Shown: positions 142 through 18,547 of the stretch, one piece after another
Layout: every line of letters starts with the position of its first letter
How positions within the stretch are numbered: position 1 is the stretch's first letter
Origin: a virus
Taxonomy: Duplodnaviria; Heunggongvirae; Uroviricota; Caudoviricetes
Direction: 5' to 3' (one strand)
Length of the DNA stretch: 32,305 nucleotides
Virus record (IMG/VR): IMGVR_UViG_2737471861_000014
Coordinates: 1 to 32,305 of that record
Notes under the pieces: generated by a model
The model's database searches: none
Told to the model about the DNA's origin: nothing
The model's input: only the letters and a program-made list of their open reading frames with translations
Made by a program: the position numbers and the translations under genes

Positions 142-1860
142 ATGATTTTTAGGGATAGCTTGAGAGTATTACCTTATGGTCGAGTAGATAATGATTTCTT
201 CCAGATAGAAGAAAGACGTTCATGGAATGCAGGGCGATATTATTGGTCTAATAGAAGGATTTTTGGTTATATTGGAATTACTCAATCCAGTAATAAAGAG
301 CTGAAAGATAAGTCGGGGAGAGAGGGATTCATAAGAAACCAGGCTGCAAGAGAACTGAAAACTATTATATCTAATTTGTTAACTGAACTTGCTGATAGAT
401 TTTTTGGTTCACGTTCTGATGACCGTAAAGAGCTTTTAGAACAAGTTAAGCGTGAAAAAGAGTTAAGAAAATCTGCTCAACAACAAGCTCGAAAATCAAC
501 ACAAAAAAGTTTTTCAGAAGCTTTGAAGAATCAGACACCAGTTCTTGATGCTTCCTTGGAGGCTGTTAAAAGGCTGAAAACTAAGCTTGATAAAACTGAT
601 GGTTCGTTAGATTTAAACTATCTTAAAATTATAGACAGTGATCTTACAAACTTAGATGCGTTGCGCAGTGAAATTAAAACGCCTATCAAACCTCCAAAAC
701 TTGGAATGTATGAAGAGAAATATAGAGACTACAGAGATAAATTTAATGAGTTCTCTGCGTATATTCTACAAATGAAGTTAGCAATTAATAAACTTGATTC
801 TGAATTAAATAAACTTGAGCCTTCATTGGCAGCGAAAAATCACCTTGAAAAAAATCAAGGTATTATTAATTCTAAACTAACTAAGTTTAATAACACGATA
901 GAGGAGAAGATACATTCTCTTTTAAAAAAATGGGCCGATGAAATAAAGGTTGATCGAAGTGATTATTATGCTAAAACTATATCAGTTGTTGATTCAATAG
1001 ATAATGATTCACAAATTGAAAATGTGTTTAATTTGCTCGATAGTTTATATGTTGAGTCAGTTGATACCCTAACTTTCAAATATCAATCAATAATAAAAGG
1101 TCTCGATAGATTATTTGAAGGTATAAACTTAGATTCAGCATTCTCATTATCTGAAGAAGAACGCTCATATTTTGAAGAAAAAGCTAAAAGTTTAAACGCG
1201 CTTGCACAGTTAGGTATTAGTGTTGAGATAATATCTCATGAACTTGAAGAAATGGATTCTATGGTAACCAGAGGACTAAACTCTCTTCCTACTTCTGTAA
1301 AAGAACACCCTGGTTTTTCATTGGCGTTAAATGCTCACAGATCGCTTACTCAACAAATACGTTTCTTATCACCTTTGAAAATATCAGGTTATCAATCCAG
1401 GCAGAGAATAACTGGAAAAAATATCATGGATTATGTCCTGAAGTTCTTTGGGGAGCGTTTCGAACGGCAACGAATAACTATTGAATTTAGTGAAGAGTTT
1501 AAGCAAATCGCAATAACAGATATACCATCAAGGATCTATCCTGTTTTTACTAATATTATCAACAATGCAATGTATTGGGTCAGTCTGTCAAATAATAGGC
1601 TCATAAAGATTGGTTTTGTGAATTCTTTGGTTATCATAGCAAATTCTGGTCCGGCAATTGATACCGATGATATCCCGCGACTATTTGAACTATTTTATAG
1701 CAAAAGAGCAAATGGACATGGGGTAGGTCTGTATCTATGTCGAGAAAACCTTGCTGTTGCACATCATAAAATATGGTATTCAGAACCTGATGAAGGCGAT
1801 AACTATTTAATAAAAGATGGCGCTAATTTTGTGATCCAGTTCAATGGAGTGGAGTTCTAA
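142..1860 (+). CDS. Histidine-kinase-like protein: coiled-coil-rich N-terminal region, HisKA-like H-box and HATPase_c (GHKL) ATPase domain; no obvious transmembrane segment
   Basis: ORF of 572 aa. ATG at 142 is preceded by AGGA; all three plus-strand frames have stops within the first 50 nt, so the gene starts inside the window. Motifs read from the translation: H-box-like ISHELEEMD, N-box-like FTNIINNAMYW, G1-like IANSGPAIDTDD, G2-like GHGVGLYLCRE. The N-terminal ~350 aa are K/E/L-rich. Confidence 0.6.
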   Translation: MIFRDSLRVLPYGRVDNDFFQIEERRSWNAGRYYWSNRRIFGYIGITQSSNKELKDKSGREGFIRNQAARELKTIISNLLTELADRFFGSRSDDRKELLEQVKREKELRKSAQQQARKSTQKSFSEALKNQTPVLDASLEAVKRLKTKLDKTDGSLDLNYLKIIDSDLTNLDALRSEIKTPIKPPKLGMYEEKYRDYRDKFNEFSAYILQMKLAINKLDSELNKLEPSLAAKNHLEKNQGIINSKLTKFNNTIEEKIHSLLKKWADEIKVDRSDYYAKTISVVDSIDNDSQIENVFNLLDSLYVESVDTLTFKYQSIIKGLDRLFEGINLDSAFSLSEEERSYFEEKAKSLNALAQLGISVEIISHELEEMDSMVTRGLNSLPTSVKEHPGFSLALNAHRSLTQQIRFLSPLKISGYQSRQRITGKNIMDYVLKFFGERFERQRITIEFSEEFKQIAITDIPSRIYPVFTNIINNAMYWVSLSNNRLIKIGFVNSLVIIANSGPAIDTDDIPRLFELFYSKRANGHGVGLYLCRENLAVAHHKIWYSEPDEGDNYLIKDGANFVIQFNGVEF

Positions 1861-3610
1861 TATGACAGTGGCAAATTATAATTCTCTTGTCCAGAAAACT
1901 TTCTGCGAAAATGCAATTCGTTCCGTTGTCATGATTGATGACGATTTTCTGACGTATTCTGAATCAATCAGGGCGTTGAATAACGAAGTTGATTTAGACT
2001 ACAACAAAATTGACTCATCTAAACGAGCCGCTACTCTTGAGAGCTTTTTTCAATCTAAAAATATGATTTGTGATGTTGACAATGGTTCTGTTAATTTCGA
2101 TGTGGATCGGATTAGGAAATCAGATCTTATTATTGTAGATTATCATCTTGATAATAATGCACCTGATAAAACACTTAAACTATTACAAGATTTGAAAGAC
2201 TCCGATCATTTAAATATGATTGTAATATATACTAGAGAGAATTTAGAAACGGTTTGGATGCAGATATCATCGACTCTCAAAGGTGCTCTGGATATCAACA
2301 GCTTGATCATTGACTACGATAATGAAGATGTCCAAAGTTATTGGGAAGACGTTGTATTACCGAACTTAAATGATAATGGTAATAAAGCTCTCACAAGAGA
2401 TGAAACAATAGCCTATATTAAAGACAGTAAGCCTTGTAGAAGAATTAAAAGATTAATACATGATGATGCTGTGTTGGAGGATCAAAAGGATAAAAACTTC
2501 ATTGCAAAAATGATTGCAGAATATGCTGTGTCTAGAAATGCAATTATTTCTAGCAACACATCTGGCAATGTCATTCGGGGTGATGAAAGCGGAGTAAAAT
2601 GGATTCAATGTGGTAATATCTTTGTCTCCCTATTTCATAAGGTTCAAGATGATCATGAAAACGATGGAGATAGGATTTGGCAAACTCTCAATGATTCTCT
2701 CATTGAATGGAAACCATCTTATTATCAGTTAATAAAATCTGAAATTCAGAATGCAATCGAAGCTGAGGCTTTATCTTTTGTAAATCATTTGGCTAACGAT
2801 CATTACGGTCAAGCTGCGTGGTTAAATGAGATATTAAAATCAGACTCGCCTGATATTAGATGTAGAAATATTGACTTTGTATTTGGTAATTTATCAGAAG
2901 AGCTTTATCAAAGACTTAAAAATAATAATACGCTGGATGAATTTATCAAAAGTGTTTTTGATAGCTATTCAAATGAATACGCTAACAGCGGAGTTGCTGC
3001 ATTGCTCCAATATTGCTCTTCAAAAATGGATCTGCCATCAAATAATGATACTTATCACGAAATGTATCATGCTTTAAATATGAATTTGTCTTCAAAGAAT
3101 TTTGAAGATGGTCATATTTCTACTGGCACTATTTTCTTTGATACAGAGTCGAACAAATGGTATTTATGTGTATCTGCGGCATGTGATTTGGTTCCTACTC
3201 AGGGTAACGACCCTCACCATGTAAGATTAAGTCCGCACAGGCTCATTAAAGTTCTGGAGCTTTTTAACGCCAGTCAGAGTAAAGCATTGCCATTTGCTGA
3301 ACATTCGAAATATATATATGTAATGCATAAAAATCAAAGAAAATATCTCTCTATTTTCGAAGGGGATAAAACGCTTCCTGTTGTTGATTATATGGTGGTG
3401 TTGAATCATGGAACAACAGTTGATGGCGAAGAAAAAAATATTATTTCTGCCGTGTTTTTAAGTAATATGGATGGCAACGTGCAAAATGTTCCTGTCCGAC
3501 TCAAACTTAAATCTCAACTGAGAACTGGTTATGCAGAAAGATATCAGGCTATAGCGTCTCAGTATAGCTCAAGGATTGGTGTGGATTATGTATCAATGAT
3601 GCTACCATAA
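1844..3610 (+). CDS. Receiver (REC)-like domain protein with a ~440-aa C-terminal domain of unknown function
   Basis: ORF of 588 aa whose start overlaps the stop of the upstream gene by 17 nt, suggesting translational coupling. REC-like motifs: acidic pair in RSVVMIDDD, putative phospho-acceptor Asp in DLIIVDYHLD, Thr in MIVIYTRE, then a Lys. No HTH or other known output domain recognised in the C-terminal part. Confidence 0.5.
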   Translation: MEWSSNMTVANYNSLVQKTFCENAIRSVVMIDDDFLTYSESIRALNNEVDLDYNKIDSSKRAATLESFFQSKNMICDVDNGSVNFDVDRIRKSDLIIVDYHLDNNAPDKTLKLLQDLKDSDHLNMIVIYTRENLETVWMQISSTLKGALDINSLIIDYDNEDVQSYWEDVVLPNLNDNGNKALTRDETIAYIKDSKPCRRIKRLIHDDAVLEDQKDKNFIAKMIAEYAVSRNAIISSNTSGNVIRGDESGVKWIQCGNIFVSLFHKVQDDHENDGDRIWQTLNDSLIEWKPSYYQLIKSEIQNAIEAEALSFVNHLANDHYGQAAWLNEILKSDSPDIRCRNIDFVFGNLSEELYQRLKNNNTLDEFIKSVFDSYSNEYANSGVAALLQYCSSKMDLPSNNDTYHEMYHALNMNLSSKNFEDGHISTGTIFFDTESNKWYLCVSAACDLVPTQGNDPHHVRLSPHRLIKVLELFNASQSKALPFAEHSKYIYVMHKNQRKYLSIFEGDKTLPVVDYMVVLNHGTTVDGEEKNIISAVFLSNMDGNVQNVPVRLKLKSQLRTGYAERYQAIASQYSSRIGVDYVSMMLP

Positions 3611-3623
3611 TTATTATATTTTA

Positions 3624-3660
3624 GGCGTGGTGATTTTTTTTCGCCATGCCTATTTTATAT
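3624..3660 (+). terminator. Putative intrinsic terminator between convergent genes
   Basis: Hairpin GGCGTGGTGA / T-rich loop / TCGCCATGCC (with G-U wobbles) followed by TATTTTATAT, immediately after the stop at 3610. Confidence 0.45.
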
Positions 3661-3681
3661 TTATCATCACAATGATGTTGT

Positions 3682-4098
3682 TTATTTTTGTTTAAGTCTT
3701 CTAAGCTTCATGCATTCTAATGAGAATAATAATAGAGTTGTGCTGTATATAAAGCCAGAGTTAGTTAATAACTTTAAATTTAATGCTTCAGGATTTTCAC
3801 TGAGAAAGTGAAAGGCATAAACTAAGTATACAGCTAAAGTAGCCGTTCCAATTGTTGGTCCAATATCGCCTTGATCATGAGGTTCAAGGTTTACATTGAA
3901 CTTGAAGATTAGCCATTCAAATCCCCAAGTAAAAAAAACAACTAATATCATGGCTGCGAATAATTTCGCGATCTTATCTGCTGATGGATTCATCAGAACA
4001 GATTGTTTCTGAAAAAATTCACAAAGTGAGAGTCCGAAAAAAATAAAAAAAAGTGGTCTGGAACTAAATTTTTCAAAAACTTTGAATAGGGTTTCCAT
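3682..4098 (-). CDS. Small hydrophobic (multi-pass membrane) protein, hypothetical
   Basis: ORF of 138 aa with several hydrophobic stretches (LFFIFFGLSL, AAMILVVFFTWGFEWLIF, GTATLAVYLVYAFHFL). AT-rich; lies between the cassette and the integrase. Confidence 0.45.
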   Translation of the reverse strand: METLFKVFEKFSSRPLFFIFFGLSLCEFFQKQSVLMNPSADKIAKLFAAMILVVFFTWGFEWLIFKFNVNLEPHDQGDIGPTIGTATLAVYLVYAFHFLSENPEALNLKLLTNSGFIYSTTLLLFSLECMKLRRLKQK

Positions 4099-4136
4099 TT
4101 TCTTTACCTTCAGGATTATATTAGCTATTCTGATAC

Positions 4137-5408
4137 TTAGGCTACCAGAGCATTTGATCTTTGAGCTTGAACGTAATCACTCCACCATTGCATCAAACTC
4201 TGTCGCTCTATCAGATATTCTGCACGATTGTATGCTGCGATAATTTCATCTTTTTTCGAGTGGGCAAGCGCTGCCTCAAGAACTTCAGCTCTGAATTTAC
4301 CAGACTCCTCTGCCGCTGTTCGTGCAATAGAACGCATACCGTGAGCTACAAGCTCGCCTCCGAACCCCATTCGGATGATAGCTGCGTTGGCTGTTTGTTC
4401 ATGCATATGATTAAGAGGCGCTTTTATGCTGGGGAAAACCCATTCTCTATGCCCACTTATTGATTTCATTAATTCAAGGATGCGCAAAGCTTCTTTACTC
4501 AAAGGAACTTTGTGAAGCTTTTTCATTTTCATGAAATCAGCAGGAATGTTCCAAATGCTGTTGGTTGTATCAATATCAGACCACCTTGCGCGAACGGCTT
4601 CACCCGGACGAACCCATGTCAACAATTGCCATTCAATTAGCATACGTGTTTCCAACCGGATTGACGCATTCGTCAAAGATTCCATAAACCTTGGCAATTC
4701 GCTTGGGGGAAGGGCAGGCATATTTTGCTTTTTTGGTTTACTGAATCTTTGACCAAGGTTGTCAGCCGGGTTGAACTCAATAAGTTCTTCAGTAGCTGCC
4801 CACCGGAAGATTTCATTCAGACGTGAAATGATACGGCGTAGAGTTTCCAATACGCCTCGTTGCTCAATAGGATCAAGGTGTTGTTTTAAGAGCTTAGGTC
4901 GGATCTCATTGATAGGGACATTACCCAGACCGGGAAAGACATTTCTCTCTAAGCTGCGCCAGATGTCTGCTGCATGGTCTTGTGAGATACCTGATGTCTT
5001 TACCTTCTCATCTAACCATTTCCGCGCTACGGCTTGGAGAGTGTGCTCAGTAGCACTCTTTAATGCCTTCGCCTTATCGTTGTTATGGATTTGGGGATCA
5101 ACACCATTTGCCAGAAAGGAGAGATATTCATCACGTAAGGCTCTGGCTCTTGCAAGGGTAAGGTGAGGATATGTCCCAAGGCTCATTTTGGTTCTTTTCT
5201 TGCTCACTGGTACTGCATACCTGAAATACCAATTTTTCTTGCCTCCTTTCGCCAAAGGAGCGATTCGTAGAATCAGACCATCACCGTCAAACAAGTTGAT
5301 TTCTTTATCGGCTGGCTTGGTGCTTTTGATTTCAGTGTCAGTGAGCTTCTTAGCGATTTTTGCCATTTTGGGACCCTCGGTTTTTGGACCCTTCTTAGTG
5401 GGTCCCAT
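4137..5408 (-). CDS. int: Tyrosine recombinase, P4/CP4-57 (IntA-like) integrase family
   Basis: ORF of 423 aa. The N-terminal LTDTEIK..KP motif and overall sequence resemble P4-type integrases. The true start may be the internal Met (MAKIAKKLTDTEIK, about nt 5366). Adjacent to the ssrA 3'-end repeat. Confidence 0.9.
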   Translation of the reverse strand: MGPTKKGPKTEGPKMAKIAKKLTDTEIKSTKPADKEINLFDGDGLILRIAPLAKGGKKNWYFRYAVPVSKKRTKMSLGTYPHLTLARARALRDEYLSFLANGVDPQIHNNDKAKALKSATEHTLQAVARKWLDEKVKTSGISQDHAADIWRSLERNVFPGLGNVPINEIRPKLLKQHLDPIEQRGVLETLRRIISRLNEIFRWAATEELIEFNPADNLGQRFSKPKKQNMPALPPSELPRFMESLTNASIRLETRMLIEWQLLTWVRPGEAVRARWSDIDTTNSIWNIPADFMKMKKLHKVPLSKEALRILELMKSISGHREWVFPSIKAPLNHMHEQTANAAIIRMGFGGELVAHGMRSIARTAAEESGKFRAEVLEAALAHSKKDEIIAAYNRAEYLIERQSLMQWWSDYVQAQRSNALVA

Positions 5409-5531
5409 TCAGGGTGCCATAACTCGTAGTTCTCAGCAATTCTCACTGGACGACAATAGACGTAAAAAAGCCCGCAGAGCTTGTGCTGTGTGGGCTTAGT
5501 AGACTTCATTGAACTTCAAACAACTAAAAAG

Positions 5532-5576
5532 TGGTGGAGCTGGCGGGAGTTGAACCCGCGTCCGAAATTCCTACAT
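5532..5576 (-). repeat. ssrA: 45-bp fragment identical to the 3' end of tmRNA gene ssrA (T-arm, acceptor stem and CCA): attachment-site repeat
   Basis: Reverse complement reads ATGTAGGAATTTCGGACGCGGGTTCAACTCCCGCCAGCTCCACCA, matching the E. coli ssrA 3' terminus as I recall it. Flanking sequence on the 5' side (5577 onward) is AT-rich and unrelated to tmRNA, so this is not a complete gene. Confidence 0.8.
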
Positions 5577-5768
5577 ACCATTTTTATTATAGTAAAAACA
5601 GTAGATTATGTTTGAAAACAATGTGTTAGTGTTATTTTGTATTTGCTCGTCTTACGCGTTTTTAATGCTCTGCCGCCAAAGTGCCGCCATTACATCAAGC
5701 ATCTAGAATAAAATTAGTTAATAAATTATAATTAATATGCTAATTGTTCTTGCATTCATAAGTGGGAC

Positions 5769-7505
5769 GTGATGAAAGAAAAAAAATTCGTTAGTGAGCT
5801 TTTCCTTGAAAATGGGCAGTTTATTTTAGTCGGTTTGACAGGTCGAACTGGTTCTGGTTGCACAACAACAGCTAATATTCTTGAAAACGAAAAAACAGTC
5901 TTCCCTGATGTAAGTAAATTACAGGGGTTTTACAAGGGATTGGATGTCCATCGTTATAATATAGTTAAAAAATTCGCAGAAAATCACTGGGAAAATTTTT
6001 ACTCAATTAAGGTGAGTGACCTAATCTCAGCGTATCTTCTGATGTTAACAGTTGAGGAAGCTTCTGAATTCATTCTATCATCTAATAAATTTATCAGTAA
6101 AGAGCATTTAGATATTGTATTAACTTTTGGTGTATTCTCAGATAATCTCATTTTGACAAGATTTAAAAATGTAATTGAGAATTTGCTTGATCATAATAGT
6201 GAATTGAAGTTTGATGAAAAAACGATTAATAAATTTATATCAATTTTGAAGTTAGTTAGAAAATTTACTAAAGAATTCAAAGCTGAACTAAATGAGATAA
6301 ACTCAAATTTATATGTTTCAGCCTATCAGTTAGCAGGTAAGTCAATTAGACGTCGTGGGCGTATTGAAGTCGATTTTGAAGATAAAGAGTTTATGCCTAA
6401 ATCTGTTTTTCATTTGCCGGAAACTATTAATAGGGTTATTAAATTAATAAGAAAAAGCAAAAGAGATAACGCATTAATTGTCATAGATGCTATTAGAAAT
6501 CCATATGAGGCAAAATTTTTTAAGGATAGATATTCTGCATTTCATTTAATGTCAATAAATGCCCCAGATGAACATCGAACAAACTATTTGCGGAAACTAC
6601 ATAAGTTTTCAGAAAAGCAGATAGAGGAAATAGATTCTGTAGAGTCAGGTAAAGGTGATAACTCTTACAAACATCTCACCAATCCAAATGTAACTAAATG
6701 TATTGAACTATCAGATATACACATTTTTAACCCAAAAAATGAATTTGATAATGACAATATTTTAAAAGCACAATTAGCGTGGTACATCGCACTGATGAAG
6801 CATCCTGGTCTGATAACACCTACTGCAATGGAAAGGGTTATGCAAGTTGCGTATACGGTAAAATTAAACTCTGGCTGTATATCTAGACAGGTGGGAGCTG
6901 TAGTAACTGATGGTGATAATTCAATAAAATCAGTTGGTTGGAATGATGTTGCCAACGGTCAGATTCCTTGCTCTATGAGATCTCTAGATGGCCTAATGAA
7001 CGATTTTGATGAAAAAACGTACAGTCATTATGAGAGAAATAATAGTTCTTTCAGAATTAAAGCTAATGAGAAACTCTTAAATTTTAGGGCGATAGATAAA
7101 ACTGGTGATATTTATAGAGGCAGGAACTTATCTTATTGTTTTAAAGATATACATAATGATCTTGATAAAGAGAAAAAAGGTAATCAAGTTCATACACGTG
7201 CATTACATGCTGAGGAAAACGCATTTTTACAACTTGCAAAATATGGTGGTATTGGCGTTCTGGGGGGGAAGTTGTATACAACTGCCAGTCCCTGTGAGTT
7301 GTGTGCGAAAAAAGCTTATCAGTTAGGTATATCTGAAATTGTATTTATTGATCCCTACCCAGGTATAGCTCAAGACCATATTATTAATATAGGTAGTAAG
7401 CCACCAAAGTTAATACAATTTAGAGGCGCAATTGGGAAGTCATATCACCGACTTTATGAGCAAATTATCCCGATAAAAGATGAGTTAGAATATCTCCTTG
7501 AGTAG
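5769..7505 (+). CDS. P-loop kinase-like N-terminal domain fused to a zinc-dependent cytidine/dCMP-deaminase-fold C-terminal domain; dCTP-deaminase-type antiphage defence protein (candidate)
   Basis: ORF of 578 aa. Walker-A-like GLTGRTGSGCTT near the N-terminus. C-terminal deaminase zinc motifs HAEENA and SPCELCAKK. AT-rich; located between the att repeat and the prophage integrase. Start is GTG 5769 or ATG 5772. Confidence 0.65.
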   Translation: MMKEKKFVSELFLENGQFILVGLTGRTGSGCTTTANILENEKTVFPDVSKLQGFYKGLDVHRYNIVKKFAENHWENFYSIKVSDLISAYLLMLTVEEASEFILSSNKFISKEHLDIVLTFGVFSDNLILTRFKNVIENLLDHNSELKFDEKTINKFISILKLVRKFTKEFKAELNEINSNLYVSAYQLAGKSIRRRGRIEVDFEDKEFMPKSVFHLPETINRVIKLIRKSKRDNALIVIDAIRNPYEAKFFKDRYSAFHLMSINAPDEHRTNYLRKLHKFSEKQIEEIDSVESGKGDNSYKHLTNPNVTKCIELSDIHIFNPKNEFDNDNILKAQLAWYIALMKHPGLITPTAMERVMQVAYTVKLNSGCISRQVGAVVTDGDNSIKSVGWNDVANGQIPCSMRSLDGLMNDFDEKTYSHYERNNSSFRIKANEKLLNFRAIDKTGDIYRGRNLSYCFKDIHNDLDKEKKGNQVHTRALHAEENAFLQLAKYGGIGVLGGKLYTTASPCELCAKKAYQLGISEIVFIDPYPGIAQDHIINIGSKPPKLIQFRGAIGKSYHRLYEQIIPIKDELEYLLE

Positions 7506-7536
7506 AAATATTATACTCATCCTTCCTGAGGTAAGC

Positions 7537-7570
7537 TTCAAGATGATCAATAAATATTGATCATCTTGAA
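7537..7570. repeat. Perfect 16-bp inverted repeat with 2-nt spacer
   Basis: TTCAAGATGATCAATA-AA-TATTGATCATCTTGAA, 32 bp after the deaminase stop. No clear U-run follows on either strand, so it may be a protein-binding site rather than a terminator. Confidence 0.6.
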
Positions 7571-7885
7571 AGTTAATTGCAGAGTCAAACTAGTAGTCAG
7601 ACTGAAGCTTCGATAAAAAATGTTTTTGTTTTTTTCATTTTCTAATGACTGTTTTTTATTGGTTTCTTTTTAATGTTGCAATGCTATGCTTTTCTACTAT
7701 TTTTGAATGTGGCATCTTTGATGTTTTTATACAACAAAGATGAGGGCTTATAGGTTTTTTTGTGATGTAAAAATTATCTTATTCTATAAATAAAACCTAA
7801 ACTCAGTCTGAAGAGTTAAATGAGAATGGATAACCTGCTGAATATTATATTTGTAAATAGTTTGAGTTTGTTTTCATAAGTTACT

Positions 7886-8902
7886 CTATCTTAAGTTGCA
7901 TAAAGGGTTTTTAGTTACCGCATCTTCAAGGTGATCGGGCGAAAAGTGGGCGTAAATCATCGTCATTTTTATATCGGCATGGCCCAGAATATCGCGCAGC
8001 ACCAGTATGTTTCCGCCATTCATCATAAAATGGCTGGCGAATGTATGACGTAGCACGTGAGTGCATTGGCCCTCTGGCAGCTCGATGCCAGCTCGCTTTA
8101 CTGCTCGTTCAAAGGCTTTTCTGCACGGGGTGAATAGCTTCCCTCTGTTCTTGGGGAGTTCGTCATACAGATCTTGAGATATCGGCACGGTGCGGTTTTT
8201 CTTACCCTTCGTCTTGGTATAAGTGATGCGGTATTTAGATAACTGATGGCCCTGCAGGTTTTCAGCTTCACTCCAGCGTGCGCCGGTGGCCAGGCATATT
8301 TTTGCAATCAAAAGCAGACTGGGGTTTTGAGAATCAGCGCAGGCATCTAGCAGACGTTTAATTTCTTCCGAGGTCAGGAACGCCAGTTCCCCCTCAGCGA
8401 TTTTAAATGTTGGCAGCCCGGCGAGAGGATTTGGTGCTGACCAGTGGCCTAGTTTTTTCAATGTGCCGAAAACCGATGATAGGTTACGTTGCTCAAGATT
8501 CACCGTGCGTGGTTTTACTGGCGACATTAGTGTGCCGTCTTCGTTACGAACGTCACCTTTTAACCGTGCTTCGCGGTATTTCGTAAAGTCACCGGCTGTC
8601 AGTTCTGAGGCGATGGGGTCGCCTAGACCATTACAGATAATTCTAAGTTTCGCCATGAGGCGCTTGGGGTCTGCGAGTGTCTGACCATACAGGGAATACC
8701 AAAGCTCAATTAATTCTGATAGGCGTCGCCGATCATCCTTTTCACCCAACCACGGTTTTTTATTCACTTCTTCCATTGTGAAGCTTTCAAAAGCAATGGC
8801 TTCGCCTTTCGTAGCAAATTGCTTACGCACGCGCTTACCATTGCGTCCATTGGGATAGCACTCACACAACCATTTTCCGTTCGGCTGTTTTCTGATGGTC
8901 AT
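7886..8902 (-). CDS. int: Prophage integrase, P2/186 tyrosine recombinase family
   Basis: ORF of 338 aa, the same length class as P2/186 Int. The C-terminal region contains HVLRHTFASHF and LGHADIKMTMIYAH, typical of the catalytic R/H/Y region. Sits immediately downstream of the CI-like gene. Confidence 0.9.
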   Translation of the reverse strand: MTIRKQPNGKWLCECYPNGRNGKRVRKQFATKGEAIAFESFTMEEVNKKPWLGEKDDRRRLSELIELWYSLYGQTLADPKRLMAKLRIICNGLGDPIASELTAGDFTKYREARLKGDVRNEDGTLMSPVKPRTVNLEQRNLSSVFGTLKKLGHWSAPNPLAGLPTFKIAEGELAFLTSEEIKRLLDACADSQNPSLLLIAKICLATGARWSEAENLQGHQLSKYRITYTKTKGKKNRTVPISQDLYDELPKNRGKLFTPCRKAFERAVKRAGIELPEGQCTHVLRHTFASHFMMNGGNILVLRDILGHADIKMTMIYAHFSPDHLEDAVTKNPLCNLR

Positions 8903-14898: not shown

Positions 14899-15087
14899 AT
14901 GCAGGACTATTTTTTGGAGTCTTTGAAGCTCCAGCGCATTGATTTTTTTCTTAAGCTTGTAGCGGCTAGTGAGTGTAGTGATGAAGAGAAGGGGCTGGCC
15001 CTGCAGTGGGTTTCTGAACTGACAGATGAACTCATGGCAAAAATCAGAACCCACGAATACAACCGCTCAATGGATGTCATCAGCTGA
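14899..15087 (+). CDS. Hypothetical small protein, first gene of a putative SOS-inducible operon
   Basis: ORF of 62 aa. ATG preceded by AGGAGG. Its stop overlaps the RBS of the next gene. Confidence 0.4.
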   Translation: MQDYFLESLKLQRIDFFLKLVAASECSDEEKGLALQWVSELTDELMAKIRTHEYNRSMDVIS

Positions 15088-15097
15088 GGTGACTTTT

Positions 15098-15331
15098 ATG
15101 CGCATTGAAATAATGATCGATAAAGAGCAGAAGATTAGCCAGTCTACCCTGAACGCCCTTGAATCCGAGCTTTACCGCAATCTGCGCCCCCTATATCCAA
15201 AAACGGTAATTCGCATCCGCAAAGGTAGCTCTAACGGTGTGGAACTGACCGGACTGCAACTGGACGAAGAAAGGAAGCAAGTGATGAAAATTATGCAGAA
15301 AGTGTGGGAAGACGACAGCTGGCTGCATTAA
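15098..15331 (+). CDS. dinI: DinI-family protein (Tum/DinI-like, SOS-associated)
   Basis: 77 aa from the ATG at 15098 (GAGGTGA RBS). MRIEI... N-terminus and C-terminal VWEDDSWL resemble E. coli DinI (MRIEV ... WESADDWF). Confidence 0.7.
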   Translation: MRIEIMIDKEQKISQSTLNALESELYRNLRPLYPKTVIRIRKGSSNGVELTGLQLDEERKQVMKIMQKVWEDDSWLH

Positions 15332-15644: not shown

Positions 15645-16742
15645 TTGCCGAGAAAGATCAGGTTAAGGGGATGTATTGTGGCTGAGAACGGACCGATAGA
15701 AGAATTAGCAAAGATAGTATCATCGAAGATTTTTGAGCGCTTTAAATGGAGCATATCAGGGCCGTGTGATCAGGACTTTGGATGTATTGACGAAGAAAAT
15801 CATAAACCACTCGAAAAAAAGCAGGCTCATACACACCCTGTCGATGTGGTTTTTAGCTATAAAGACCCTTATTTAAATAAAACTATTTTATTGAATACTG
15901 ACCTAAAAAGTTACTCTAAGGGTTCTATTAATCCTGACATGATAGAAAAAGCGCTGACATCCCTAGGGTATACAATTTCCTGTGCTCAATATAGTCCGGA
16001 GTGGAGAGAGAAATATAATATATGCGTTGGGGATAGTGAGGTTAGAGGGTTATTGTTTGTTTATAATCATGATAACGATTTTGAGCATAACTTTTATGAT
16101 TTCTTCGATCCTCCCAAACCTGCAGGAAGAAAAAGAAAGCCGAAGGCAGTTAAATTAGATAATATAAAAGTGTCTGATGGGCAACAAATACATATAATTG
16201 AGCCTAAGTCGATTAGCTATATGTTATCTATAATCGCAGATATGAATGAATTAATCAGAGATAATCAATTCCCGAGAGATGAGTATGGTTTTTATTACCC
16301 TCAACTTACATATCATAAGGTAATTGTCACCGATGATTATTTACCTGCAACGATAGAGTCTTTGACTGCTCCATTTTTAATTATTAAACATGATGCAGTT
16401 TACTCGTATGATCGCGAGCTACAAAGAGAAGTTGAAGTTTATCCTGCAGGGTATGTTGTATATTATAATCGTCCGGGCTCCACAGATATGGAGTTTTATT
16501 ATCTCTTTGATCTTTTAACTAACTACCAGATTCTGAATGGAAAAAACAACATAAGAATACGTATCGCGACAAAAGATCGGAATGATTCAATAAGATCGCA
16601 TTTTAAACGGGCACTTCAGAAGTATGCTTTTGATTGGAATTATGATGATAGTGCAAAGGAAAAACTACTTTCTATGGATATTTATTTAGTTCCTACAGTT
16701 AAAGAGTTTTATAGTACTGAATCAACATCTTGGGATTATTGA
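15645..16742 (+). CDS. Hypothetical protein, gene 1 of an AT-rich three-gene cargo cassette
   Basis: ORF of 365 aa. Start is TTG 15645 or, more likely, GTG 15678 (AAGGGG RBS 7 nt upstream). Possible PD-(D/E)xK-like spacing (HPVDVVF ... NTDLK) near the N-terminus, a weak motif-level guess. No recognisable phage structural or replication homology. Confidence 0.55.
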   Translation: MPRKIRLRGCIVAENGPIEELAKIVSSKIFERFKWSISGPCDQDFGCIDEENHKPLEKKQAHTHPVDVVFSYKDPYLNKTILLNTDLKSYSKGSINPDMIEKALTSLGYTISCAQYSPEWREKYNICVGDSEVRGLLFVYNHDNDFEHNFYDFFDPPKPAGRKRKPKAVKLDNIKVSDGQQIHIIEPKSISYMLSIIADMNELIRDNQFPRDEYGFYYPQLTYHKVIVTDDYLPATIESLTAPFLIIKHDAVYSYDRELQREVEVYPAGYVVYYNRPGSTDMEFYYLFDLLTNYQILNGKNNIRIRIATKDRNDSIRSHFKRALQKYAFDWNYDDSAKEKLLSMDIYLVPTVKEFYSTESTSWDY

Positions 16743-16743
16743 T

Positions 16744-17868
16744 ATGAGCAATATTTATAGTGTGACGGATAAGGTTTTATGTGATGCTCTTAACCAGTCA
16801 CAAGTAACTCAAAATGAGATGAGAGAGCTTTATCTTTCAAGAGGTATAATTATTTCAAAAAACACCGATAGAAAATTATTAGCTAAAAACTTCTCAAAGT
16901 TCACTCATGATTACTATGATCATCAGAAAATTGCAGAGATATTAGGAAGTGAGCCTCGGAGGGAGCGTTCTACTTCAAGATTAGTATCTAATATGCCTGA
17001 AAAAACAATTTTATTAAAAGCGGCGGATTCGCTAAAAAAAGAGCTAACAGACCAAAAAGACCTCTGCCATATAGTTGCTGATAAAAGTGGCATGATAAAT
17101 ATTCATATAACTTATATGTCAACAAATTTTTCAAAAAGTGATTTCAAACAAGTCGTTAAAAAGCAAGCTGTCATAGAGGTAGAGCCAACAGAAGCTGGTT
17201 ATGTGATTCGCCGTCCAGATAATGAGCAAACTGAGGTTTATGAGAATCAGTTACTTGCTATCGTTGAAAGATTATCAAAGGAAAGAGCGATTGAGGAAGG
17301 AAAACCAATTTCGGACGCTACTCTCGATATCCAAGAAATAAGTCTAGAAAACATTGATTCCCCTCAGTCCAGAACTGATTTCTTTACGAAATTAATAAAT
17401 GGGCTTGAAGGTTATGAACTCGATGATGTAACAGATGCTTATGTTTATCACCCAAAACCAGAAGAGATTGAAGAGGAAGACGGCGAAACAGATTTAGGAG
17501 TACATGTTAGTAAGGCATCGTTGAAAGGGGAAGGGGTGCTCAAATCTGAAGAAATCAACTCACTTTATGAGCGTGGCTTTTATATATGTAAAATTAAATG
17601 GCGAGTTAAAGAGAAAGGTGCGGATCCAAATATTTTTGAGTTTGAAGCGCAATTTAACGACGCTCAAAATTTTAAGGGGTTTTCATATATAGCTAAAGGT
17701 ATTAAAAAATACAAAGGGGGTGGCGAGTATAATAAGTCAACAGTCCAGTTGAAAGATAGTCAGAAGTTATTTTTTAGTCGTATGATTGAAAAGGCAGCCC
17801 GTTCCATTATAATTGAACTAAATAAACAGGCTCAGGGGAAGAAAGATGGAAAGTCTGATCAGAGTTAA
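16744..17868 (+). CDS. Hypothetical protein, gene 2 of the three-gene cargo cassette
   Basis: ORF of 374 aa starting 1 nt after the gene 1 stop. Contains an acidic stretch (EEIEEEDGETD). No recognisable domain. Confidence 0.55.
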   Translation: MSNIYSVTDKVLCDALNQSQVTQNEMRELYLSRGIIISKNTDRKLLAKNFSKFTHDYYDHQKIAEILGSEPRRERSTSRLVSNMPEKTILLKAADSLKKELTDQKDLCHIVADKSGMINIHITYMSTNFSKSDFKQVVKKQAVIEVEPTEAGYVIRRPDNEQTEVYENQLLAIVERLSKERAIEEGKPISDATLDIQEISLENIDSPQSRTDFFTKLINGLEGYELDDVTDAYVYHPKPEEIEEEDGETDLGVHVSKASLKGEGVLKSEEINSLYERGFYICKIKWRVKEKGADPNIFEFEAQFNDAQNFKGFSYIAKGIKKYKGGGEYNKSTVQLKDSQKLFFSRMIEKAARSIIIELNKQAQGKKDGKSDQS

Positions 17869-18547
17869 ATGGAATAGATTGAAGTCTAATCTTACATTAA
17901 GTGAGATTGCTTTTTATATAAAGAGTAACAAATACTCTGAAGAACTTGGCTATGGTTATTCTGACTTTGAAGTTTCATCTGACGTACTATCAGCTACGTA
18001 TACTGAAGCTAAGTTGAATAAACAGACTTCAGTTGATCCTTTGGGTAACGAAAATGAACAAGAGTTCATTACTTATGAGTCAATTCAGTTCTCTATATCT
18101 AAACTCATAGGTAGGTTATATTTATTATCAGTTTACAATCCACCAAAATCAATAAAGGCTTTGACAGAGCGACTTAGTGCGGATTCAGGTTATAAAATAG
18201 GGTTTGGCATCGTTGATATTAAACTGTCTGAGTATTTGGATTCGCTGCATAAAAAATATGATTTGGAACTTGTTAGTATCAAGAAGGTTAAGGTTAGTAA
18301 TTTGATAGTTAATGATAACTCTAAGGCAACCGTAGAGGTTACATCTAAGAAAAATGCATTTGATGATGTGAAGGATATTATTGGGGATAAAGCATATTCT
18401 CTTGATAAGGTCAGGGCGGCAGGATATGTTCTAGGACATCGTTGTGAATTTGAGATATCGAAGAATGGTTCTGTCTGTGCTAACGAGGGTATGGTTAAAT
18501 ATTTAACTGAGACAATAGTTTCTCATATTCTTGAAAGGGAAATTTAA
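17846..18547 (+). CDS. Hypothetical protein, gene 3 of the three-gene cargo cassette
   Basis: ORF of 233 aa whose start overlaps the end of gene 2 by 23 nt, preceded by a GGGGAAGAAAG RBS. No recognisable domain. Confidence 0.55.
   Translation: MESLIRVKWNRLKSNLTLSEIAFYIKSNKYSEELGYGYSDFEVSSDVLSATYTEAKLNKQTSVDPLGNENEQEFITYESIQFSISKLIGRLYLLSVYNPPKSIKALTERLSADSGYKIGFGIVDIKLSEYLDSLHKKYDLELVSIKKVKVSNLIVNDNSKATVEVTSKKNAFDDVKDIIGDKAYSLDKVRAAGYVLGHRCEFEISKNGSVCANEGMVKYLTETIVSHILEREI

Follow-up and report, generated by a model that had tools for sequence, protein, structure and literature searches.

A probable anti-phage dCTP deaminase as moron cargo between attP and the integrase of a P2-family prophage

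Results

The locus and its prophage setting

The window, by which we mean the whole 32,305-nucleotide stretch of the caudoviricete virus record IMGVR_UViG_2737471861_000014 that was analysed, contains an open reading frame at 5769..7505 (+) that is bounded by a phage attP arm on one side and an integrase gene on the other (Table 1). Read from its GTG codon, the start given in the earlier note, the frame encodes 578 aa, but both the RefSeq annotation and the protein alignment with the dCTP deaminase of E. coli AW1.7 favour the ATG at 5772, which gives 577 aa, so that the frame itself stands and only its start moves, by a trivial 3 nt. The coding sequence is AT-rich, as had been remarked, with a GC content of 32.8% vs 48.8% in the early prophage region and 55.3% in the late genes.

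Table 1. Features of the deaminase locus (window coordinates; residue numbering from the ATG at 5772).
Feature	Position	Strand	Remarks
att core	5532..5576	-	45-nt copy of the ssrA (tmRNA) 3' end
Phage attP arm	5577..5698		kept in sister P2-family (pro)phages regardless of cargo
Gene-specific 5' spacer	5699..5771	+	~73 nt; travels only with this allele
Anti-phage dCTP deaminase CDS	5772..7505	+	577 aa plus stop; identical to RefSeq WP_032248869.1
N-terminal P-loop nucleotide-kinase-like domain (predicted fold; ~aa 1-345)	5772..6806	+	Walker A G21-T32, candidate Walker B LIVID 235-239, long helical insertion
C-terminal zinc-dependent dCMP/dCTP deaminase domain (~aa 346-577)	6807..7502	+	H479-A-E481, P507-C508-x-x-C511, second cysteine pair C369 and C400
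AT-rich 3' spacer	7506..7885		380 nt; co-travels with the gene
P2-family prophage integrase	7886..8902	-	always borders the cargo slot on its right; Pfam Int_N and Phage_integrase

In all 45 of its positions the att core agrees with the 3' terminus of the complete ssrA gene in NCTC9038, a genome in which that gene is found past ogr, at the other prophage end; the core also gave a sub-threshold Rfam tmRNA match (E 3.9e-10). It marks the distal boundary of the P2-family prophage and doubles as the proximal att of an integrase island to its left. About 115 nt of the adjoining attP arm recur with 77-88% identity beside ssrA or att in ~150 E. coli genomes without the deaminase gene, and the arm is also present in the packaged phages Cartapus, RE2010, SEN8, SopEPhi and Fels-2, being annotated as 'Part of prophage attP'. 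Because it is kept in sister (pro)phages whatever cargo follows, the arm has no specific tie to the deaminase gene. A 32-aa ORF at 5608-5706 falls within the attP arm, is annotated as a gene in no genome inspected, and was treated as non-coding.

On the other side, the integrase shares 93% identity with its counterpart in phage Cartapus and adjoins the deaminase gene in 20/20 genomes, while the slot between attP and the integrase carries other, unrelated cargo genes in sister phages. The att repeat and the prophage integrase named in the earlier note are thus both real. Of the two origins it had offered, a moron of the prophage or a mini-island of its own, only the first holds, as the gene is a moron between attP arm and integrase, inside an att-delimited Fels-2/Cartapus-like P2-family prophage integrated in ssrA. 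An uncharacterised two-gene island adjoins the prophage in the window.

Distribution of the gene

The allele was found in 20 of the 5,426 complete E. coli genomes, every time inside a prophage, and its coding sequence is at least 97.5% identical across these carriers, with the annotated genes in E47 and NCTC9038 showing 100% nucleotide identity to it. The identical protein WP_032248869.1 is already named "anti-phage dCTP deaminase" in RefSeq, a product name that the gene bears in 19 of the 20 carrier genomes. Other P2-family prophages have diverged alleles in this slot, and an annotated homologue is detectable at the DNA level in 38/5,426 genomes, the further contexts being an ICE, a tRNA-Phe island and a serine-recombinase element. 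The distribution of the family is therefore sporadic and on mobile elements, without a conserved housekeeping context. A search of deposited phage genomes returned no close homologue, with a best match of 27% identity, and the gene is so far known from prophages only. The E. coli H10407 genome, which encodes the experimentally tested homologue WP_096882215.1, has no DNA-level match to the deaminase gene; that homologue must be a distant family member.

Domain architecture and family assignment

All three motifs pointed out from the bare sequence were located, namely the P-loop GLTGRTGSGCTT (aa 21-32, nt 5832-5867), HAEENA (aa 479-484, nt 7206-7223) and SPCELCAKK (aa 506-514, nt 7287-7313). An alignment of 33 homologues with identities down to 59% shows no variation in the P-loop, HAE and PCxxC columns, nor in the individual residues H479, E481, C508, C511, C369 and C400. 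G29 and C30 sit within the P-loop motif, which is invariant in the family.

The comparison with profile models of dCTP deaminases that the earlier note had proposed gave a clear assignment. The NCBIfam equivalog NF041025 ("anti-phage dCTP deaminase") matched over profile positions 1-437 of 437 with 425.5 bits (E 2.3e-127), above its curated whole-protein cut-off of 400 bits, and the PADLOC dCTPase model PDLC02373 matched with 484.7 bits (E 1.3e-145). Pfam dCMP_cyt_deam_1 matched the protein as well (E 1.6e-14), and with E-values of this order the motifs are no chance occurrences. For the N-terminal half, nothing significant was returned by Pfam, by NCBIfam or by a family profile run against PDB sequences, and its kinase-like fold was found by fold comparison of the predicted structure only (mean pLDDT 76.8, with 81-94 in 10-residue blocks across residues 31-260), so that the domain is kinase-like as judged from the predicted fold. 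With this reading of the N-terminus, the protein shows the layout by which Tal et al. define the family, that is, more than 350 aa with an N-terminal kinase-like and a C-terminal cytidine/dCMP-type zinc deaminase domain. Together with the 72% identity to the AW1.7 enzyme described below, these matches bear out the proposal of a kinase/cytidine-deaminase fusion of the antiphage dCTP-deaminase type.

The outcome that the earlier note had regarded as speaking against its proposal, best homology to a housekeeping dCMP deaminase in a conserved chromosomal context, is not what we found. The housekeeping ComEB model (TIGR02571) scored 36.3 bits vs a cut-off of 219.45, and only over aa 476-530 of what is a two-domain protein on a mobile element. 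ComEB, T4 Cd, human DCTD and PBCV-1 bi-DCD have the C-terminal fold and the zinc-site chemistry in common with the protein; they lack the kinase-like N-terminal domain and are not mobile cargo.

Tested relatives in E. coli AW1.7 and U09

The closest relative characterised in depth is the AW1.7 dCTP deaminase WP_045268677.1 (576 aa vs 577 aa here), which aligns over its full length, without large gaps, at 72% identity and 85% positives. It shares the two domains, the P-loop, the HAE/PCxxC motifs and the extra cysteine pair. Mutating G29, C30, C370 or C401 of AW1.7 abolished defence and dCTP depletion (Tal et al.), and all four residues are kept here, as G29, C30, C369 and C400. By LC-MS, cells expressing the AW1.7 enzyme lost dCTP, dCDP and dCMP and gained dUMP in the first 5 min after infection with T7, and the mutations of escaping phages fell in T7 gene 5.7, which inhibits the host RNA polymerase (Tal et al.). 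The two loci differ in their setting, as the AW1.7 gene lies on an integrase island at tRNA-Phe, with an upstream region unrelated to that described here.

The U09 gene, in turn, was cloned 'with native promoter' and defended E. coli MG1655 against several phages in the study that established the family (Tal et al.). Like the window, the U09 construct has the ssrA att fragment, the attP arm and the 5' spacer; over window positions 5532-5768, 4 of the 237 aligned columns differ, and the construct groups with the allele of the window rather than with the ~97.5% group (4 vs 19 differences). Left of att, the two diverge into host flank in U09 and the integrase island in the window. Since the upstream region matches, and since that region precedes a coding sequence at least 97.5% identical in 20/20 genomes having it, we infer that the U09 coding sequence is probably the same as the one described here. 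Both the U09 and the AW1.7 genes protected MG1655 against diverse phages, the range of U09 being narrower and that of AW1.7 reportedly broader (Tal et al.). The LC-MS, mutagenesis and escape data all come from AW1.7, which is 72% identical, and the U09 data concern defence only. By analogy with these tested relatives, the present allele would likewise defend its host.

The relatives also bear on two other roles that a deaminase in a phage genome could have. One is that of a nucleotide-metabolism gene like the T4 dCMP deaminase 'cd', feeding dUMP into dTTP synthesis for replication of the prophage. The gene does lie in a phage genome, and the nearest solved relatives of its deaminase domain include the dCMP(/dCTP) deaminases of T4, cyanophage S-TIM5 and a chlorovirus. 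Those enzymes, however, are single-domain proteins (126-173 residues in the matched chains) and are ~30% identical over the C-terminal third only. The poor ComEB-type score, the lack of a close homologue in deposited phage genomes, the variable cargo of the slot, which unrelated genes occupy in sister phages, and the restriction of phages by both U09 and AW1.7 all argue against such a role, which we consider highly improbable. The other role is that of an APOBEC-like polynucleotide-editing deaminase that would mutate phage DNA or RNA, as could be suggested by weak Pfam matches to MafB19-deam, APOBEC_N and Bd3614-deam. All three are below their gathering thresholds, however, and the dCMP-deaminase model fits far better; the nearest folds are those of mononucleotide deaminases, and neither DNA-seq nor RNA-seq of infected cells expressing the AW1.7 enzyme contained an excess of C-to-T changes. 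An editing function thus appears extremely improbable, and nucleotide deamination of the dCTP-deaminase type is the reading that we retain.

Flanking spacers and the question of an RNA regulator

The gene-specific 5' spacer falls within the stretch of U09 that was cloned with its own promoter and presumably holds the deaminase promoter and ribosome-binding site. A consensus scan of 5400-8000 for promoters and terminators returned no more matches than shuffled sequences did, with no sigma-70 consensus upstream of the gene. The 3' spacer, present in the same 20 genomes only, evolves faster than the coding sequence (93% vs 97.5% conservation). It folds with a z-score of -3.28 relative to shuffles, a signal dominated by a perfect hairpin of ~15 bp at 7537-7570, which might plausibly act as the terminator of the deaminase transcript. 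In the G5-type and E1433-type alleles of the same slot this spacer is missing, and the gene abuts int.

These spacers are of interest in view of DcdV, encoded on VSP-1 of V. cholerae, which by description has the same architecture of a P-loop kinase and a dCMP-deaminase-type domain. DcdV needs both domains, acts on dCTP as well as dCMP as a deaminase and gives protection from phage (Hsueh et al., bioRxiv 10.1101/2021.03.31.437871), and the V. cholerae genes were placed in the same family by Tal et al. It is governed by a cis-encoded RNA, DifV (152-174 nt), which is co-transcribed from directly 5' of the gene on the same strand and inhibits the enzyme post-translationally; cognate upstream regions also neutralised the homologues of V. 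parahaemolyticus, P. mirabilis and E. coli H10407 (bioRxiv 10.1101/2021.03.31.437871). No equivalent of DifV was identified at the present locus. Folding of the 193-nt 5' spacer gave no signal (RNAfold z +1.45 vs shuffles), Rfam matches, at gathering threshold or E of at most 1, were confined to the tmRNA fragment, and the last 100 nt upstream of the gene have no similarity between E. coli clades. Fold, Rfam and clade comparison thus provided no evidence of a DifV-like regulator, with the qualification that the known DifVs share no sequence similarity.

On the DcdV-DifV precedent and the neutralising upstream regions, the locus could be conceived mainly as an addiction module of the toxin-antitoxin kind, in which a labile non-coding RNA inhibits the enzyme and stabilises the prophage and defence is a by-product; the 3' spacer, which accompanies the gene and has a more stable fold than its shuffled controls, would also fit. 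We regard this as quite unlikely, given that just the ~73 nt next to the gene are specific to it, the rest of the upstream sequence being attP arm common to phages with other cargo, and that this upstream sequence, besides its lack of fold and Rfam signal, is unrelated between clades. Furthermore, the AW1.7 construct defended with only 83 nt upstream of its ATG and no toxicity was reported, and the 3' spacer is lost from two sister alleles and changes faster than the coding sequence. A regulatory layer of this kind would, moreover, add to a defence function rather than replace it. There is, on the other hand, a small chance that the spacers accompanying the gene hold a so far unrecognised regulator of the enzyme, the best candidate being a DifV-type RNA from the 3' spacer, placed 3' instead of 5' of the gene. 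If true, such an RNA would explain how a dCTP-destroying enzyme is tolerated by the lysogen and by the P2-type phage during induction.

Discussion

The gene described here is very probably an anti-phage dCTP-deaminase (DcdV-type) moron in the attP-integrase slot, which would deplete dCTP upon infection. None of the observations speaks against this assignment. The family assignment, the folds of the predicted model, the conserved residues, the location in the prophage and the near-identity to the U09 upstream region were computed here; the defence phenotype, the depletion of dCTP, the need for both domains and the escape through T7 gene 5.7 are taken from the literature on close relatives and would apply to this allele by analogy.

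Here we propose that in the lysogen the protein may be made yet kept inactive, and that upon infection by a lytic phage its C-terminal zinc deaminase, with H479, E481, C508 and C511, would turn dCTP, and also dCDP and dCMP, into deoxyuridine nucleotides, so that the dCTP pool would collapse and replication of the phage DNA would stall. The N-terminal P-loop kinase-like domain would be needed for activity and may bind a nucleotide or have a switch-like regulatory role. The most likely trigger of activation is the shut-off or modification of host RNA polymerase imposed by the infecting phage, as suggested by the escape mutants only. The resident P2-type phage might be spared because it relies on host transcription instead of shutting it off.

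The family and its mechanism, and in effect this allele too, were published in 2021-2022, and the RefSeq annotation is already correct, so that the discovery value of the gene is small. P2-like prophages are likewise known to carry defence cargo in fixed slots (PMC9122126; bioRxiv 10.64898/2026.02.27.708500). Rousset et al. 2022 (PMC9122126) covers the gpA-portal slot, which in the window holds a 3HP system, and not the int-att slot; the attP-integrase slot is already listed as a minor P2 defence hotspot in a 2026 preprint (bioRxiv 10.64898/2026.02.27.708500). The dCTP deaminase is mentioned in neither of the two papers.

The value of the present locus is thus modest and lies in its being a clean and well-delimited case of a nucleotide-depletion gene in the attP-integrase slot of a P2-family prophage. 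As the prophage also carries 3HP as defence cargo, with the two-gene island next to it, the window shows in compact form how defence genes can stack up where elements integrate in ssrA. For finding new defence systems, the unknown genes that fill the same slot in sister phages are more promising than the deaminase gene.

Assignment to the antiphage dCTP deaminases

The open reading frame that the earlier note placed at 5769-7505 is indeed present on the plus strand, where a GTG at 5769 is directly followed by an ATG. We take the protein to be 577 aa long, because this ATG, at 5772, is both the RefSeq start (a 1,734-nt CDS in NCTC9038 and E47) and the point at which the alignment with the homologue of E. 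coli AW1.7 begins. In this numbering, the Walker-A-like motif GLTGRTGSGCTT lies at aa 21-32 and the zinc-deaminase signatures HAEENA and SPCELCAKK at aa 479-484 and 506-514, as had been read from the sequence, and the gene is AT-rich, with 32.8% GC in the CDS against 48.8% in the early prophage region and 55.3% in the late genes. A protein cluster, P0005, holds a 499-aa form (99% identical, 86% of the query covered) that represents 527 public member sequences; it follows that in many of the copies on deposit either a contig end cuts the gene short or a start further downstream has been annotated, in which case the P-loop would be missing.

The proposed kinship with dCTP-deaminase antiphage proteins is borne out by three independent libraries, namely Pfam (dCMP/cytidine deaminase zinc-binding domain, aa 354-526, E 1.6e-14), PADLOC (dCTPase model, aa 8-574, E 1.3e-145) and NCBIfam, whose equivalog NF041025 'anti-phage dCTP deaminase' is covered over the whole profile at 425.5 bits (curated cut-off 400), whereas the ComEB model of housekeeping dCMP deaminases reaches only 36 of the 219 bits that it requires. 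Thousands of full-length relatives were found among 5.8 billion proteins, in Enterobacterales, Vibrio, Aeromonas, Shewanella and Pseudomonas, many of them named 'anti-phage dCTP deaminase', and the identical protein already bears this name in RefSeq. Across 33 aligned homologues, the most distant at 59% identity, no variation is seen in the P-loop G21-C30, the Walker-B-like D239 (within LIVID 235-239), H479-A-E481 or P507-C508-x-x-C511, nor in another two cysteines, C369 and C400.

The label 'P-loop kinase' stands by fold and motif, but Pfam, NCBIfam and the family profile give no significant match to an N-terminal kinase domain. In the AlphaFold2 model, for which the family alignment served as input, pLDDT averages 76.8 and lies at 81-94 in the 10-residue blocks from residue 31 to 260; searching the PDB by sequence returned no full-length relative, only single-domain dCMP deaminases matching the C-terminus.

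Comparison with experimentally tested relatives

The CHARACTERISED proteins of Tal et al. (bioRxiv 10.1101/2021.04.26.441389) are two members of this family, from E. coli U09 and AW1.7, and both genes, cloned with their native promoters into MG1655, protected against diverse phages. During T7 infection the AW1.7 protein caused loss of dCTP, dCDP and dCMP and a rise of dUMP within minutes; defence and depletion were both abolished by G29A/C30A in the P-loop and by C370A/C401A in the deaminase domain, and T7 escapers were mutated in gene 5.7, whose product inhibits host RNA polymerase (bioRxiv 10.1101/2021.04.26.441389). Aligned over its entire length with the window protein, the AW1.7 protein (WP_045268677.1) shows 72% identity and 85% similarity, and none of the four mutated residues differs between the two.

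The U09 construct (Table S5 of that study) begins in host flank and then shares with the window the ssrA att fragment, the attP arm and the 5' spacer; its nt 164-399 differ from window 5532-5768 at 4 of 237 columns, compared with 19 differences from the second E. coli allele group. Since the CDS that follows this upstream sequence matches that of the window at 97.5% identity or more in 20 of the 20 complete genomes having the sequence, we regard the window gene as a U09-type allele, and thus as already tested for defence, the identity of the CDS being deduced from the upstream match. The family, the mechanism and, in effect, the allele are already published.

We hold the enzymatic and defence role of the window gene with high confidence. 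By homology, a lysogen would make the protein constitutively at a low level and inactive; on infection with a lytic phage the enzyme would be switched on, its zinc deaminase would convert deoxycytidine to deoxyuridine nucleotides, and host dUTPase would turn dUTP into dUMP, so that dCTP vanishes and phage DNA synthesis halts. Judging from the relatives, the kinase-like domain would be essential. We lean slightly towards phage interference with host RNA polymerase as the probable trigger of this allele. A P2-type phage presumably relies on host RNA polymerase and leaves it running, and could thus carry the weapon untriggered during its own induction.

Three alternatives were considered, each weakly supported. 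APOBEC-like editing is contradicted by the sequencing controls of Tal et al., in which AW1.7 showed neither DNA nor RNA editing upon infection (bioRxiv 10.1101/2021.04.26.441389), and we give it practically no weight. A metabolic role serving the phage itself, like that of T4 cd, is very improbable given that the protein has two domains, that the cargo slot is variable, that the ComEB model fails and that the relatives defend against phages. The third, an addiction function, concerns the flanking spacers and is treated with them.

Position within the prophage

The att repeat of the earlier note matches the ssrA 3' end at 45 of 45 positions (sub-threshold Rfam tmRNA match, E 3.9e-10). The opposite end of the NCTC9038 prophage is marked by ogr, with a full ssrA just past it; the att copy is therefore the distal boundary and the gene lies inside. 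The arm 3' of the att core (~120 nt) is found again, with 77-88% identity, in some 150 E. coli genomes lacking the gene and in the packaged P2-family phages Cartapus, RE2010, SEN8, SopEPhi and Fels-2, where it is annotated attP. Cartapus, whose integrase is 93% identical to that of the window, has the order ogr, small gene, attP, RES-domain gene, int, cI. The same slot holds two unannotated proteins in the E. coli C2 prophage, one in EcPNK004, and dCTP-deaminase alleles only ~72-74% identical in DNA in G5-type and E1433-type prophages.

The P2-type integrase beside the gene is the same in 20 of 20 genomes, whereas what lies left of the gene differs: a degraded integrase and IS in NCTC9038, a recombinase/ParB island in FDAARGOS_1250 and a P4-like satellite carrying a SIR2 gene in E47. 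In U09, judging by its construct aligned to the EcPNK004 locus and to L006, another comparison locus, this side is plain host flank. The constant integrase, the distal att boundary, the shared attP arm and the other cargo in sister slots thus decide between the two options left open before: the gene is not a mini-island of its own but a moron, variable cargo of the attP-int slot in a Fels-2/Cartapus-like member of Peduoviridae. Other E. coli homologues reside in a tRNA-Phe island (AW1.7), a serine-recombinase element (LR-29-1) and an ICE (LF82); no close homologue was found in deposited phage genomes.

Features of the window and of comparison loci
Feature	Position	Strand	Remark
Left ssrA-integrated island	142-5408		also in E. 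coli C2 (L004:565-5788)
Histidine-kinase-like ATPase	142-1860		HATPase_c + HEF_HK, 572 aa; AT-rich pair
Response_reg_2 (PF19192) protein	1844-3610		588 aa; AT-rich pair
ORF of left island	3682-4098	-	138 aa
P4-type integrase	4137-5408	-
IsrM match (Rfam)	5464-5541	-	end of left-hand integrase region and att core
att copy	5532-5576		45 nt
attP arm	5577-5698
Small ORF MFENNVLVLFCICSSYAFLMLCRQSAAITSSI	5608-5706	+	32 aa
Cargo module travelling with the allele	~5699-7885		~73-nt 5' spacer, CDS, 3' spacer
3' spacer	7506-7885		380 nt, AT-rich
Hairpin	7537-7570		perfect, ~15 bp
DinI-like gene	15026-15331		beside gpA-portal cargo
gpA-portal cargo	15645-18547	+	three AT-rich genes, 365, 374, 233 aa
C2 slot proteins	L004:6112-8487		397 aa + 375 aa
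EcPNK004 slot protein	L005:6115-7146		343 aa
Cartapus slot protein	L013:4165-5370		annotated RES-domain protein
Protein between ogr and attP/ssrA	L008:1517-1999 (NCTC9038); L013:3395-3877 (Cartapus)		160 aa; outside window
RefSeq 'ssrA tmRNA', EcPNK004	L005:5954-6130		177 nt; att fragment + attP arm, distal prophage end

Search for a DifV-like regulator

In V. cholerae, DifV, a 152-174-nt RNA encoded directly upstream and co-transcribed, keeps DcdV inactive; cognate upstream regions also neutralise homologues of three other species, including E. coli H10407, and the known DifVs share no sequence similarity (bioRxiv 10.1101/2021.03.31.437871). The H10407 homologue has no DNA-level similarity to the window gene, so that experiment is not directly transferable.

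The 5' spacer is mostly attP arm, shows no folding advantage over shuffled sequence (z +1.45) and has no Rfam match; its last 100 nt are unrelated among E. coli clades, and the functional AW1.7 construct of Tal et al. has only 83 nt upstream. The small ORF within the conserved arm, just 5' of the deaminase gene and on its strand, matches in position the 'small ORF / DifV' described for other homologues; none of the genomes inspected has a gene annotated there, and the ORF is probably non-coding. The 3' spacer, present in the same 20 genomes only, folds better than its shuffles (z -3.28), driven by a hairpin most simply read as a transcript terminator; it is less conserved than the CDS (93% against 97.5%) and missing from two sister alleles. 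Neither spacer gives positive evidence of a DifV-type partner, a result to be read with the divergence of known DifVs, which limits in silico searches and precludes demonstrating absence. A toxin-antitoxin-like prophage addiction with an undetected RNA partner thus seems improbable to us, and we retain the defence role.

Other cargo and neighbouring elements

Besides the deaminase, the same prophage carries, in its classical P2 gpA-portal hotspot, genes matching PADLOC Hp1, Hp2 and Hp3 (E 7e-64, 2e-47, 1.5e-8), presumably the '3HP' system described by Rousset et al.; if so, one prophage would hold two defence cargos. The sister prophages of E47 and NCTC9038 have other cargo there, a DUF4145 protein among it.

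Left of the att fragment lies a separate island whose ATPase, Response_reg_2 protein and 138-aa ORF have no PADLOC match, and which is possibly an uncharacterised conflict system. At its end, a sub-threshold Rfam match to the Salmonella sRNA IsrM scores 53 bits (E 3.9e-13; gathering score 376). The 'ssrA tmRNA' of EcPNK004 looks like a partial or mis-annotated copy, not a functional tmRNA gene. The 160-aa protein at the other prophage end, which matches a BRCT domain weakly and PADLOC PDC-S48 in part (E 1.7e-7), is annotated 'putative exonuclease' in Cartapus, and its position may be another small cargo slot by att.

What the present analysis adds to the published family is small, namely the placement of the gene in the attP-int cargo slot of a P2-family prophage that integrates in ssrA, and a search for a DifV-like element that found no evidence of one. 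The slot proteins of C2 and EcPNK004 have neither PADLOC nor significant Pfam matches; together with that of Cartapus they are candidate defence genes, and as such better leads for discovery than the deaminase itself.
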